Positions 15,615-20,524 of a stretch of 64,000 nt of DNA are shown piece by piece. A model generated the notes under the pieces. That model was not told the DNA's origin. It was given only the letters and a program-made list of their open reading frames with translations, and did not search any database. Origin of the DNA: Escherichia coli (GTDB lineage Bacteria; Pseudomonadota; Gammaproteobacteria; Enterobacterales; Enterobacteriaceae); assembly GCF_003018235.1 (NCBI RefSeq), contig NZ_CP027437.1, one strand, 5' to 3'. The position numbers were made by a program, and so were the translations under genes. How positions within the stretch are numbered: position 1 is the stretch's first letter; each line of letters opens with the position of its first letter.

Positions 15615-18038
15615 TTAAACCTTTTCGATCTGGACAAGATTGCTGTGCGACGGGTTTCCCTTTGCCAGCGGTGAAGGGCGGTGAGAGGTCAGAATATTGA
15701 TACTGCCGCCGTGATCGACCCGGTCACCAAACATATCCGCTTTAAGCCACGCACCTTGCCCGATGGCGGTAACGCCAGGCAGAATACGCGGAGTCACTTT
15801 TGCGGCAATCAGCATTTCTCCATTATTGTTAAATACCCGCACGGTATCGCCATGACGGATACCGCGTGCCTGAGCATCAATAGGGTTTATCCACACCTCT
15901 TGTGGGCAGGCCTGCTGTAACACATCAATATTGCCGTAGCTGGAGTGGGTACGCGCTTTGTAGTGGAAGCCCGTTAGCTGCAGTGGATAGGTTTTCCGCA
16001 GGGGATCGTCCCAGCCATCAAAACCTGGGGTATACGCAGGAAGGGGATGAATAATTTCATCTTTTTTCAATTCCCAGGTATCCGCAATCGTCGCCAGTCG
16101 TTCAGAATAAATTTCGATTTTCCCCGAAGGTGTTTTCAACGGGTTTGCCTGTGGATCTTCACGGAATGCGCGGAAAGCGACGTAGTGTTCTTCCGGGCAT
16201 TTTTTCTTAAAGATCCCGGTCGTTTTCATCTCCTCGTAGTCGGGCATCTCAGGGTTACGTTCCTTCGTTTTCGCATGGAGATATTTGATCCATTCGTGCT
16301 GACTGCGGCCTTCAGTAAAGGTTTGATAAACGTCTGGTCCTAAGCGTTTGGCGACTTCACTCAGCATCCAGTAGATGGGTTTGCGTTCAAATTTTGCTGA
16401 GGTTGCGGGTTGGGCGAGGATCACATAGCCCATATTCCCGGCAGATTCGTGAGAGATAAGGTCTTCTTGCTCTGTTGGCATCAGGTCGGGCAACAGGATA
16501 TCGCAATACTTAGCCGAGGCAGTCATGAAGTGGTCAATGCCAACAATCATCTCGCACTTGCTGTCATCCTGAAGCACCTCATGGGTGTGATTGATGTCGC
16601 CATGTTGATTGATCAATGTGTTACTGGCGTAGCACCATAAAAACTTGATGGGGACATCCAGTTTTTCTTTTCCACGAACACCATCACGGGTCGCGGTCAT
16701 TTCCGTACCGTGGTCGATGGCATCTGTCCATGTAAAGACGGAAATCTGCGTTTTAACAGGATTCTCAAGCATCGGGAACCATTCTACCCCCAGATCCCAG
16801 CTACCTTCGCGTACACCTGAGTTGCCGCCGTTTATGCCGACGTTACCGGTGAGAACGGAAAGCATGGCAATAGCGCGGGACGTTTGTTCGCCGTTGGAGT
16901 GTCGTTGTGGCCCCCAACCCTGACAAATATAAGCAGGTTTTGCTGAACCGATCTCTCGTGCCAACTGGATAATTTTTTCTGCCGGGATGCTGGTGATTTT
17001 TGCTGCCCATTCCGGCGTTTTAGCTATGCCGTCAGGCCCTTCGCCCAGAATATAGGCTTTATAATGCGCGTTACGTGGTGCGTTGGCGGGCAGCGTTTTT
17101 TCATCGTAACCAACACAATATTTGTCGAGAAATGGCTGATCGACCATGTTTTCAGTAATCAGTACCCAGGCAATCGCACAGGCCAGTGCGCCATCGGTGC
17201 CTGGGCGAATTGGCAGCCATTCATCTTCACGCCCGGCAGCAGTGTCGTTATAACGTGGATCGATGACGATCATGCGTGCGTTTGAACGTTCTCGGGCTTG
17301 CTCGACGTAGTAAGTGACACCACCGCCGCTCATCCGGGTTTCTGCCGGGTTATTTCCGAACATAACGACCAGTTTCGTATTGGCTATATCATCCGGGCTG
17401 TTGCCATCATTGGCACCGAACATATAACTCATTGCGGCACTGATTTGAGCGGTACTGTAGCTGCCATAGCGACTGAGAAAACCACCGCAAGAGTTCATCA
17501 GACGGTACGGGACGTTCGAGTTGGTGATGTTTCCGCCATCTACGCCTGTTCCGTACAGGACATGTACAGCCTCATTGCCGTATTCTTTCAGGATCCGCCG
17601 AAGATTATCACTGATGGTATCCAGGGCTTCATCCCAACTTATCCGTTCAAATTTACCTTCACCGCGCTTGCCGACGCGCTTCATGGGATATTTCAACCTA
17701 TCAGGATGATTCATCCGTCGGCGGATAGAGCGCCCGCGTAAACACGCCCGAACCTGATGATTACCGTAGACGTCGTCACCTGTCGTATCAGACTCCACCC
17801 AGTACACGGTGTCATCTTTCACATGCAAACGTAACAGACAGCGGCTCCCGCAGTTAACGGTGCAGGAACTCCAGACCGCTTTCTCTTCTACCGGTGCCTC
17901 TGCCGCTCGGACCATTTGGGAAAATGGCAGAGTGAAAGCACTGCTTGCCAGCGCAAGACTGCCAAGTGCGGAGGTTTTCATCAGACTTCTACGGCTGATT
18001 TCAGCCTTCATGAGCGCCTCTGTGGTATGGATTTTCAT
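15615..18038 (-). CDS. ynfF: Molybdopterin oxidoreductase catalytic subunit YnfF (DmsA paralogue, selenate/DMSO reductase family)
   Basis: 807 aa from [21 protein letters not shown] (twin-arginine signal), N-terminal Cys cluster CTVNCGSRC, molybdopterin-binding domains. Confidence 0.9.
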   Translation of the reverse strand: [807 protein letters not shown]

Positions 18039-18098
18039 CATTACTCACTTATTGCTTTTCAAACAAAATGTCATGTCAGAATTTATGGTTGTAGTGGG

Positions 18099-20524
18099 TT
18101 ATATTTTTTCGATCTCGACCAGATTAGTGTGCTGCGGGTTTCCCTTCGCCAGTGGTGAAGGGCGCAGAGTGGTTAGCGTATTCACACAGCCGCCATGGTC
18201 GATTTTATCGCCAGACATATTGGCCTCGTGCCAGGCTCCCTGGCCCATAGCGCTAACCCCAGGGAGAATGCGTGGTGTCACTTTGGCTGGTAGCCGAACT
18301 TCGCCACGATGGTTATACACCCGCACCATATCGCCGTTGGCAATCCCACGTTTCTGTGCGTCTATAGGGTTGATCCACACCTCCTGACGGCAGGCAGCCT
18401 TCAGGACATCAATGTTGCCGTAGGTCGAGTGAGTACGGGATTTGTAATGGAAACCGAACAGTTGCAGTGGAAAGGTACTACGTTCAGGGGAGTCCCAGCC
18501 TTCAAAGGTTGAGGCATAAACCGGCAGTGGGCTTATCACTTCATCTTTTTCCAGTTCCCAGGTACGGGCAATTTCCGCCAGCTTGCTGGAATAAATTTCA
18601 ATCTTACCGGAAGGCGTTTTAAGTGGATTTGCCTCGGGGTCGTCACGAAATGCTTTGTAGGCGACAAAATGACCATTGGGATCTTTACGCTTATAGATAC
18701 CCATTTTTTTCAGTTCGTCGTAAGACGGTAACGCCGGATCTTTGGCAAGCATTTTGGCGTACAGATGTTGTAACCATTGTTCCTGCGTGCGACCTTCTGT
18801 GAACTTTTGATAGACGTCAGGTCCAAGACGTTTCGCGACCTCACTCAGGATCCAGTAAATCGGTTTGCGTTCGAATTTTTCGCTGGTGACTGGCTGAAGG
18901 AAAATGAGATATCCCATGTTACCGGCGTAGTCGTTAGGAATAATATCTTCCTGCTCAACGGTCATCAGGTCTGGCAGCAGAATGTCGGCATATTTTGCCG
19001 ATGAGGTCATAAAGTTTTCGATGACCACAATCATTTCGCATTTCGATTCGTCCTGCAGAATTTCATGCGTTTTGTTGATGTCAGAATGCTGATTAACGAG
19101 GGTATTTCCCGCATAGTTCCAGATGAACTTAATGGGCACATCCAGTTTATCTTTGCCCCGGACACCGTCGCGGATTGCCGTCATTTGCGGGCCATGATCG
19201 ATAGCATCTGTCCAGCTGAAGCAGGAGATTGACGTTTTGACCGGATTATCCAGCACCGGTAGGCGTTCTATGGTAATGGTATAGGTCGATTCACGCGCGC
19301 CACTATTCCCGCCGCTGATGCCGACATTGCCCGTCAGAATAGGCAACATCGCAATAGCACGTGCAGTCAGCTCGCCGTTTGCCTGGCGTTGCGGTCCCCA
19401 GCCCTGGCAGATATAAGCGGGTTTTGCTGTGCCAATTTCACGCGCCAGTTTGATGATACGGTCCACCGGGATACCGGTAATTTGCGAAGCCCACTGCGGC
19501 GTTTTCGCTGTTTTATCGTCACCTTCACCAAGAATATAGGCTTTATAGTGACCATTTTTTGGTGCATCTGCGGGTAAGGTTTTTTCGTCATAGCCGACGC
19601 AGTATTTATCGAGAAAAGGTTGATCAACGAGATTTTCGTTAATCAATACCCAGGCAATACCCGCAACCAGCGCGGCATCGGTGCCCGGGCGAATAGGTTG
19701 CCATTCGTCTTCACGACCAGCAGCTGTATCGGTATATCGCGGATCGATAACAATCATTTTGCGTTCGATTTCTCGCGCGCTTTTTCAAGAAGATAAGTGA
19801 TGCCACCGCCGCTCATGCGGGTTTCTGCCGGGTTGTTACCAAACATCACGACCAGCTTGCTGTTTTCAATATCCGTGGTGCTGTTGCCATCATTACTGCC
19901 GTAGGTGTAGGGCATGGCACAGGAAATTTGCGCGGTGCTGTAGGAGCCATACTGGTTGAGTGAACCGCCGTAGCAGTTCATCAGGCGTTTGACCGCCGAG
20001 GCGGATGGCGAAGAGCGGGTCATATTGCCGCCAACGATCCCTGAAGAGTACTGAATATATACAGCCTCATTGCCATATTGTTCGACGGTTTTTTTCAGGC
20101 TACTGGCGATAGTATCCAGGGCTTCATCCCAGCTAATCCGTTCGAATTTGCCTTCGCCGCGTTTGCCCACGCGTTTCATTGGGTAATTCAAGCGATCGGG
20201 ATGATTAATACGCCGACGGATGGAGCGACCGCGCAAACAGGCACGTACTTGATGATTGCCATACTCGTCGTTGCCGGTGTTGTCAGTTTCCACCCAGGTC
20301 ACTTCATTATCTTTAACATGCAGACGAAGTGCACAGCGGCTACCACAGTTGACGGAACAGGCACCACAGAGCACTTTCTCGCTGGCCTGTTGTACCGCTG
20401 CCGCTGCACTGCGCAGGGTGAACGGTAAAGAAAAACCGCCTGCAGCCAGCGCCAGAGAACCTATCGCGGTAGATTTAACGAGTGTTCTGCGGCTGATGCC
20501 CACCATTTGTTCATTTTTGGACAT
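18099..20524 (-). pseudogene. ynfE: ynfE (DmsA-type catalytic subunit) interrupted by a 1-bp frameshift in a homopolymer run
   Basis: Two adjacent ORFs in different frames (19754..20524, 256 aa, twin-arginine N-terminus MSKNEQMVGISRRTLVK; 18099..19757, 552 aa, begins MIVIDPRY) together align collinearly with intact YnfF; junction reads gca aaa tga ttg on the coding strand, where the paralogue has an in-frame ...[11 protein letters not shown]. Confidence 0.75.

Follow-up and report, generated by a model that had tools for sequence, protein, structure and literature searches.

An old, diverged ynfE-ynfF tandem pair with a lineage-specific ynfE pseudogene in Escherichia coli

The adjoining catalytic-subunit genes ynfE and ynfF of this Escherichia coli DNA are most probably an ancient, strongly diverged pair in which ynfE has become a private pseudogene that is tolerated through dispensability, with only rare short-homology deletions between the copies (probability of about 0.88 for this account as a whole). 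The window, meaning the complete stretch of 64,000 nucleotides analyzed, is collinear with other E. coli genomes (99.3-99.4% identity), its genes running dmsD-ynfH-ynfG-ynfF-ynfE-ynfD, and none of the complete RefSeq E. coli genomes is identical to it, the best match lying at that same level. Here ynfE and ynfF are the catalytic-subunit genes of the known E. coli ynfEFGH-dmsD operon. An ORF scan and the translations place ynfF and ynfE side by side on the minus strand, within the following features:

13474..14088, minus strand: dmsD, chaperone for the Tat proofreading of DmsA, YnfE and YnfF (mapped coordinates)
14131..14985, minus strand: ynfH, membrane anchor subunit (mapped coordinates)
14987..15604, minus strand: ynfG, iron-sulfur subunit common to YnfE and YnfF (mapped from the RefSeq annotation of locus L001; ORF scan)
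15615..18041, minus strand: ynfF, intact catalytic subunit, a single 808-aa ORF (translation; collinear with annotated E. coli ynfF)
18042..18098, minus strand: ynfE-ynfF intergenic spacer, 57 bp (ORF scan)
18099..20524, minus strand: ynfE, frameshifted catalytic-subunit pseudogene, 2426 nt where 2427 are expected
18099..19757, minus strand: ynfE C-terminal fragment of 552 aa, an ORF that begins with the native Met257, whose ATG overlaps the preceding TGA (ATGA)
19757..19760, minus strand: frameshift site, where a 1-bp deletion shortens the A5 run of E. coli references to A4 (from alignment to the ynfE of strain Res13-Lact-PER13-34)
19754..20524, minus strand: ynfE N-terminal fragment, 256 aa, ending in TGA, with the Tat signal ISRRTLVK and the Cys motif CSVNCGSRC

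RefSeq starts ynfF one codon later, which gives 15615-18038 and 807 aa. A promoter and terminator scan over the region returned nothing exceeding shuffle expectation, self-comparison of the window revealed no repeats of at least 100 bp, and a BLAST search with one IS1 copy from locus L004 found no IS1 in the window.

Both proteins carry the twin-arginine signal and the Cys cluster for the FS0 [4Fe-4S] centre of the DmsA/YnfE/YnfF group; the translated N-terminus of YnfF has ISRRSLMK and CTVNCGSRC in place of the YnfE motifs listed above. YnfF scores 1774.5 bits against the NCBIfam model NF041884 (selenate_YnfF), above its cutoff of 1650, and 1286 against TIGR02166 (cutoff 777.7). The two ynfE fragments span profile positions 2-253 and 254-805 of NF041885 (selenate_YnfE) with 510.8 and 1249.3 bits; each is below the cutoff of 1675 because the gene is split, and their sum exceeds it. 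Annotation of the ynfE fragments lists the Pfam families PF04879, PF00384 and PF01568. The operon context is also of DmsA type, with a DmsB-like ynfG, a DmsC-like ynfH and the chaperone gene dmsD directly downstream. The operon product would be a Tat-exported, DmsABC-like molybdoenzyme reducing selenate and tellurate, in which YnfG, YnfH and DmsD would be common to YnfE and YnfF. The reductase activity of YnfE and YnfF on these substrates is taken from the literature (PMC12724226, PMC5203670), as is the role of DmsD as a Tat proofreading chaperone serving DmsA, YnfE and YnfF (PMC5203670).

The closest known system is the E. coli K-12 operon, which has the same genes, order and flanks (clcB-dmsD-ynfH-ynfG-ynfF-ynfE-ynfD-ynfC-speG). 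MG1655 is 98.1% identical to the window over 5.2 kb, and the window ynfE differs from the K-12 operon in its private 1-bp deletion and in V52L, W53C and L276Q. Salmonella enterica, a different genus, also has ynfE and ynfF in tandem, with 71% protein identity between them (PMC5203670); its YnfE matches the window orthologue at 87% identity and its YnfF at 91%, but both of its genes are intact. The single-copy srnA/ynfE gene of Enterobacter cloacae is a YnfE orthologue (PMC12724226) without a ynfF partner and thus without a tandem repeat, and the loci examined from Enterobacter, Kosakonia and Phytobacter likewise carry an E-type gene only.

The description of the region as a tandem paralogous pair of about 4.9 kb, made initially from the sequence alone and without naming the minus strand, holds: repaired YnfE and YnfF align by BLASTP with 564/801 identities (70%, E = 0) and their genes adjoin. 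The duplication is, however, old rather than recent. When 42 homologues from 53 loci are placed in a neighbour-joining tree, YnfE, YnfF and DmsA form separate clades; the E and F tandem is found in Salmonella and in Citrobacter amalonaticus as well, and orthologues of each copy occur in Salmonella and Citrobacter, with YnfF additionally present in Kluyvera. At the DNA level ynfE and ynfF are 71.5% identical by nucleotide alignment and 69.2% by codon alignment. Their third codon positions are 46% identical, with a pS of 0.715 and a dS of about 2.3, and synonymous sites are saturated. A recent segmental duplication does not agree with this pS or with copies that are not confined to one lineage. 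The tandem duplication predates the Escherichia/Salmonella/Citrobacter split, and ynfE and ynfF have each gone their own way since then. The paralogy itself is already known, being present in standard annotation and in the literature since 2003 (Lubitz and Weiner, 2003; Guymer et al., 2009; both as cited in passages of PMC5203670, PMC12096835 and PMC12724226).

No signal of gene conversion between ynfE and ynfF is found across three genera, because E-F divergence is alike within a genome and between genera. Within-genome E-F identity is 0.692 in the window, 0.686 in Salmonella and 0.679 in Citrobacter, and the window ynfE compared with Salmonella ynfF also gives 0.692. Four sliding windows of 50 codons, in which E-F identity reaches the orthologue level, were considered as conversion candidates and rejected; their third-position identity is only 0.44-0.50 and thus reflects protein conservation.

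The foremost alternative is that the two genes act as direct repeats, through unequal crossing-over or gene conversion, and that this recombination potential, for example ynfF-templated repair, underlies the tolerance of the frameshift. The sequence-only reading had proposed such a role on the basis of long identical stretches, which do exist in the proteins, where both of the peptides it quoted occur in both copies (the longer one varies at [I/M]NHPDRL[N/K]), but not in the DNA. It had itself named an identity too low for recombination, with no long identical tracts in a pairwise nucleotide alignment, as the outcome that would overturn the idea; the alignment, at 71.5%, contains no such tract. 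The identical segments relevant to recombination are as follows:

ynfE 20112..20131 and ynfF 17617-17636, minus strand: longest identical tract, 20 bp, TGGGATGAAGCCCTGGATAC (nucleotide alignment)
ynfE 19818..19834 and ynfF 17335-17351, minus strand: 17-bp identical tract, AACCCGGCAGAAACCCG, crossover site of the K-12-type hybrid
ynfE 19371..19380 and ynfF about 16887-16896, minus strand: equivalent of the ECONIH4-type crossover, microhomology AACGGCGA(AC)

The longest run is what chance provides, since shuffled sequences give a mean of 20.0 bp (sd 3.5) and 54% of them attain 20 bp. It is also shorter than the MEPS of E. coli, reported as 23-90 bp (PMC3758752) or as at most 30 bp (PMC8918686), and no identical tract of MEPS length joins ynfE and ynfF. 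Conserved protein blocks are not equivalent to recombination-proficient DNA repeats: 26 identical residues here give at most 20 identical bases. Efficient RecA-dependent homologous recombination is not to be expected between copies that have diverged this far.

Natural variation was surveyed in 5,426 complete E. coli genomes. The spread listing of a 5.2-kb search was too coarse for hybrids and was replaced by a composite query, with positions 14500-15999 (A) joined to 20141-21640 (B), which joins in one place only if about 2.1 kb or more has been lost. The full collinear pair is present in 5,127 genomes. What survives of the proposed recombination substrate is an in-frame ynfE'-'ynfF hybrid that has lost exactly one repeat period, found in 10 of the 5,426 genomes. 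These hybrids represent just two independent events, whose junctions fall in microhomologies of about 10 and 14 bp, the tracts lying about 2.48 kb apart. The K-12-type hybrid (JCC-EE 7, FELIX_MS533) has its crossover within the 17-bp tract, the second-longest identical one, and switches near residue 232; the JCC-EE 7 chimera is WP_256683566.1. The ECONIH4-type (WP_104457354.1) switches near residue 385, and 68 public contigs encode its protein. The deletions in AZ 191 and FDAARGOS_1285 were considered as paralogue crossovers and set aside, both being out of register. No tandem triplication was seen, the E|F junction being single-copy in 5,288 E. coli genomes.

The in-register hybrids, including one with its crossover in an identical tract, favor active recombination. 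Against it stand the identity of about 70%, the chance-level tract below MEPS, the lack of a conversion signal in three genera, the absence of triplications, the restriction to two microhomology-joined events and a frameshift that stays unrepaired across the roughly 23 assemblies that represent the lineage. Moreover, the product of such a deletion would eliminate the frameshift, not render it tolerable. This alternative is therefore considered unlikely.

Short-homology, RecA-independent deletion between dispersed direct repeats is classic in E. coli, as in lacI deletions and tandem-repeat slippage. The hybrids may be likened to lacI-type deletions by virtue of their short tracts (about 10 and 14 bp), although the window itself has no such deletion. 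The one-copy variants are rare and fit short-homology deletion better, and from tract length only we infer that the hybrid-forming deletions are probably RecA-independent. Rare deletions between short identical tracts reduce the pair to one ynfE'-'ynfF hybrid gene that stays in frame. If active, the chimeras would be ready-made domain swaps for mapping differences between the YnfE and YnfF isoenzymes. A tentative reading of the sequences is that natural lineages carry intact in-frame YnfE(N)-YnfF(C) chimeras and, separately, that the frameshift in the window might be bypassed, either through reinitiation at ATGA or through -1 slippage at GCA-AAA-UGA; both parts stay within a known enzyme.

The frameshift itself is a 1-bp deletion that converts AACGCAAAAATG of reference E. 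coli to AACGCAAAATG in the window, and loss of this base from the A5 run splits ynfE into the 256- and 552-aa ORFs. Loss of a single base in such a run is a classic type of homopolymer sequencing or assembly error, which would leave ynfE intact in the organism. An 81-bp probe across the site spans 82 bp in the best matches listed and has no full-length exact match among the matches listed, which come from 5,296 matching complete E. coli genomes. Error is nevertheless very improbable and is rejected as the source of the frameshift in view of recurrence on independent contigs: the exact 256-aa fragment protein occurs on 21-23 public contigs and the exact 552-aa protein on 20, the contigs (of which 23 were read) being drawn both from NCBI and from Logan assemblies built independently from SRA runs. 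The allele is real, because the identical fragment ORFs recur on these 20-23 contigs, and it is heritable, recurring in about 23 public assemblies. The same allele also bears private amino-acid changes; among its 12 codon differences from the nearest allele three are non-synonymous (V52L, W53C and L276Q), which only hints at relaxed constraint on the broken gene. The broken ynfE is a lineage-specific pseudogene, and its frameshift is a marker of that specific lineage.

That ynfE is still expressed, by -1 slippage of tRNA-Lys on A-AAA before UGA or as a split enzyme via ATGA termination-reinitiation, is the least probable alternative: inspection of the sequence, its sole basis, offers GCA-AAA-TGA-TTG, where the -1 frame reads AAA and then ATG ATT GTT as in the wild type, and a stop/start overlap that begins at the native Met257, but A4 is a weak slippery site, the private W53C adjoining the FS0 cysteine motif suggests decay, and no split catalytic subunits of the DMSO reductase family, which fold around Mo-bisPGD, are known to assemble.

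Under the preferred account of a dispensable pseudogene, the cell can do without the enzyme and still has YnfF as an isoenzyme, and we infer that dispensability and isoenzyme redundancy explain the tolerance of the broken ynfE better than recombination does. The loss would be borne by a non-essential enzyme with YnfF as its isoenzyme and DmsA also present. The earlier suggestion that recombination accounts for the tolerance finds no support. Many natural E. coli have lost one paralogue or the other: in 546 genomes a deletion has turned ynfF into a pseudogene, ynfE is elsewhere interrupted by an integrase-bearing island, and in one genome the pair has been removed beside an IS1 element. In Salmonella, YnfE is the main contributor and YnfF makes no great contribution to selenate reduction (PMC5203670). 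By analogy, YnfF may not fully back up the lost YnfE, and the tolerance may mean that the activity is unneeded in the niche of this lineage. A by-product of the census is that either paralogue is often lost, whereas precise E/F chimeras are rare and occur at microhomologies.

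The sequence-only reading had described ynfE and ynfF as a tandem paralogous duplication of ~4.9 kb. An ORF scan recovers both genes, as follows.

15615-18041, minus strand: ynfF, an intact 808-aa ORF
18099-20524, minus strand: the adjoining ynfE paralogue, split into two overlapping ORFs
19754-20524, minus strand: ynfE fragment of 256 aa
18099-19757, minus strand: ynfE fragment of 552 aa

The peptides quoted in that reading are present in both translations, and the repaired YnfE matches YnfF by BLASTP at 564/801 identities (70%, 85% positives, E = 0). The intact gene scores 1774.5 against the NCBIfam YnfF profile (cutoff 1650), and the two ynfE fragments fall on positions 2-253 and 254-805 of the YnfE profile. 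Over 25 kb the window and E. coli chromosomes are collinear and 99.3% identical, and the region maps onto the annotated gene order clcB-dmsD-ynfH-ynfG-ynfF-ynfE-ynfD-ynfC-speG. A lambdoid prophage (terminase, portal, integrase, ydfU, exonuclease) lies in window 25001-50000, a part that shows many partial matches to E. coli chromosomes and plasmids. The description as tandem paralogues is correct, but the pair is already known and is ancient, with saturated synonymous sites and separate E and F clades. The operon is already in the literature, being presented as a dmsABC paralogue in a passage of PMC12096835 that cites Lubitz and Weiner (2003). YnfE and YnfF of Salmonella are 71% identical, and selenate reduction there is performed chiefly by YnfE (PMC5203670).

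Nucleotide-optimised alignment puts ynfE and ynfF at 71.5% nucleotide identity, codon alignment at 69.2%. Identity at third positions is 46%, and synonymous sites are saturated, as follows from a pS of 0.715 and a Jukes-Cantor-corrected dS of ~2.3. A homologue scan using one genome per species gave 53 loci, with E+F tandems seen in Escherichia, Salmonella diarizonae and Citrobacter amalonaticus; YnfE, YnfF and DmsA form separate clades in a neighbour-joining tree of 42 homologues drawn without bootstrap support values. Codon-alignment identity between E and F within a genome is 0.692 in the window, 0.686 in Salmonella and 0.679 in Citrobacter, and the window's E gene is also 0.692 identical to the Salmonella F gene. 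Because E-F identity is equal within and between genomes, concerted evolution has been absent since these genera split. In a few 50-codon windows E-F identity reaches the orthologue level; gene conversion was rejected for these, as third-position identity there is 0.44-0.50, which indicates protein constraint. Orthologues of Escherichia compared with those of Salmonella (locus L018) or Citrobacter (locus L009) are themselves saturated (pS 0.69-0.78, third-position identity 0.46-0.52). Saturation at this level seems high for these genera.

The longest tract identical between ynfE and ynfF is 20 bp (TGGGATGAAGCCCTGGATAC, inside the block encoding WDEALDT), followed by tracts of 17, 17, 15 and 15 bp. 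No excess of long identical tracts over shuffled codon columns was found, since the longest run in the shuffles is 20.0 +/- 3.5 bp and 54% of them reach 20. For recombination in E. coli, identity must run uninterrupted for 23-90 bp, according to pathway (PMC3758752), or <=30 bp by another account (PMC8918686). At ~70% identity and with a longest tract under 23-90 bp, the pair is too divergent, and too poor in long identical tracts, to serve as a substrate for classical homologous recombination, a role proposed from sequence and refuted here. Homeologous exchange is also aborted by mismatch repair. What weakly rescues the proposal is a set of rare microhomology deletions in 10 hybrid genomes.

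These hybrids emerged from a census of 5,426 complete E. coli genomes, checked four ways. The full collinear 5.2-kb pair is present in 5,127 genomes, and the ynfE-ynfF junction is single in each of the 5,288 genomes that have it; because no chromosome among these carries two junctions, the reciprocal triplication product is ruled out. A composite query, which joins only if about 2.1 kb or more has been lost, identified 12 genomes with large deletions. In ten, ynfD and ynfG flank one intact gene of 2427 bp; the other two were rejected as paralogue crossovers, their deletions being out of register. Informative-site mapping shows a clean single switch from E to F in all ten, and the hybrid genes are in-frame and encode 808 aa (1616-4042 in both L059 and L060, hybrid loci in their own coordinates). 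JCC-EE 7 and FELIX_MS533 carry perfect K-12 chimeras, with the first 258 informative sites of E type, the next 506 of F type and a junction within the 14-bp tract AACCCGGCAGAAAC. ECONIH4, 0H15-0H26 and CAVP776 share one identical hybrid in the four sequenced copies compared, and its junction lies in the microhomology AACGGCGA(AC), 8-10 bp long according to parental allele, at about gene position 1146-1155. The two distinct junctions establish two independent events. The exact ECONIH4-type protein (WP_104457354.1) occurs on 68 public contigs and is established in a natural lineage; the other type occurs on only 2. WP_104457354.1 scores slightly under both the YnfE and YnfF NCBIfam cutoffs, hence its generic RefSeq name. 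Paralogue-guided deletion exists but is rare, at 0.18% of genomes, and the tracts involved are shorter than the minimal identity for E. coli homologous recombination; the junctions suggest a RecA-independent short-homology deletion.

The ynfE lesion is an A5 run short of one A (CGAACGCAAAAATGATT to CGAACGCAAAATGATT when aligned with the nearest E. coli allele). The frameshift allele is genuine and belongs to a lineage, because its exact 256-aa and 552-aa products recur on 21 and 20 contigs, respectively, from NCBI and independent SRA-run assemblies. An 81-bp probe across it gave no full-length exact match among the matches listed, with 5,296 complete E. coli genomes matching. The allele has three private changes, V52L, W53C and L276Q, which may be a sign that constraint on the broken gene is relaxed; they fit its decay and are statistically not decisive. 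The first two (window 20366-20371, codons 52-53, EKVVWGACS to EKVLCGACS) immediately precede the cysteine that opens the N-terminal FeS motif (FS0), with W53C beside it. At window 19754-19760 the deletion yields GCA-AAA-TGA, and the native Met257 ATG overlaps the stop (ATGA). A bypass, by tRNA-Lys -1 re-pairing that would restore the wild-type reading or by reinitiation that would give a split protein, is highly improbable.

The frameshift would instead be tolerated through dispensability of the enzyme, a reading drawn from ynfF pseudogenes, island insertions in ynfE, loss of both genes and the hybrids, which reduce two catalytic genes to one. Recombination, to which tolerance had been tentatively ascribed, is not supported as its explanation, as it provides no mechanism where dispensability does. 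A ynfF pseudogene of the U14A type, lacking 274 and 580 bp at two internal sites, is present in 546/5,426 genomes (10%). In U14A, the single representative inspected in full, ynfE is intact.

15697-15970 and 16745-17324 (window-equivalent): ynfF deletions of the U14A type (locus L002, 1616-3185)

Some strains carry an integrase-bearing island within ynfE. In E7 the gene is truncated at window-equivalent ~19129 and adjoined by a 525-aa site-specific integrase gene and then hypothetical genes (locus L003, 9625-11269); the match to TUM12357 ends at this query position as well. In E7, ynfE appears to serve as the insertion site of a genomic island or prophage. Strain 23AR0885 has lost both genes entirely; directly next to ynfG it has an IS1 element and then Qin-like prophage genes (locus L004, 5105-5900). 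Isoenzyme redundancy in the window is plausible because YnfF is intact and YnfG, YnfH and DmsD are common to YnfE and YnfF, with the caveat that Salmonella YnfF adds little (PMC5203670).

Paralogue content varies by genus. Among loci L010-L016, L033, L035, L036, L047 and L054, those of the Citrobacter freundii complex have only an F-type gene and those of Enterobacter, Kosakonia and Phytobacter only an E-type gene. In Rahnella a tandem copy of the DmsA clade comes after an E-type gene, and in Kluyvera an F-type gene has a DmsA-clade gene ~3.9 kb upstream. A 350-bp contig of ~1x coverage in an Alkalicoccobacillus porphyridii assembly (L057) encodes residues 220-335 of E. coli YnfF at 100% identity and is almost certainly contamination of that assembly.
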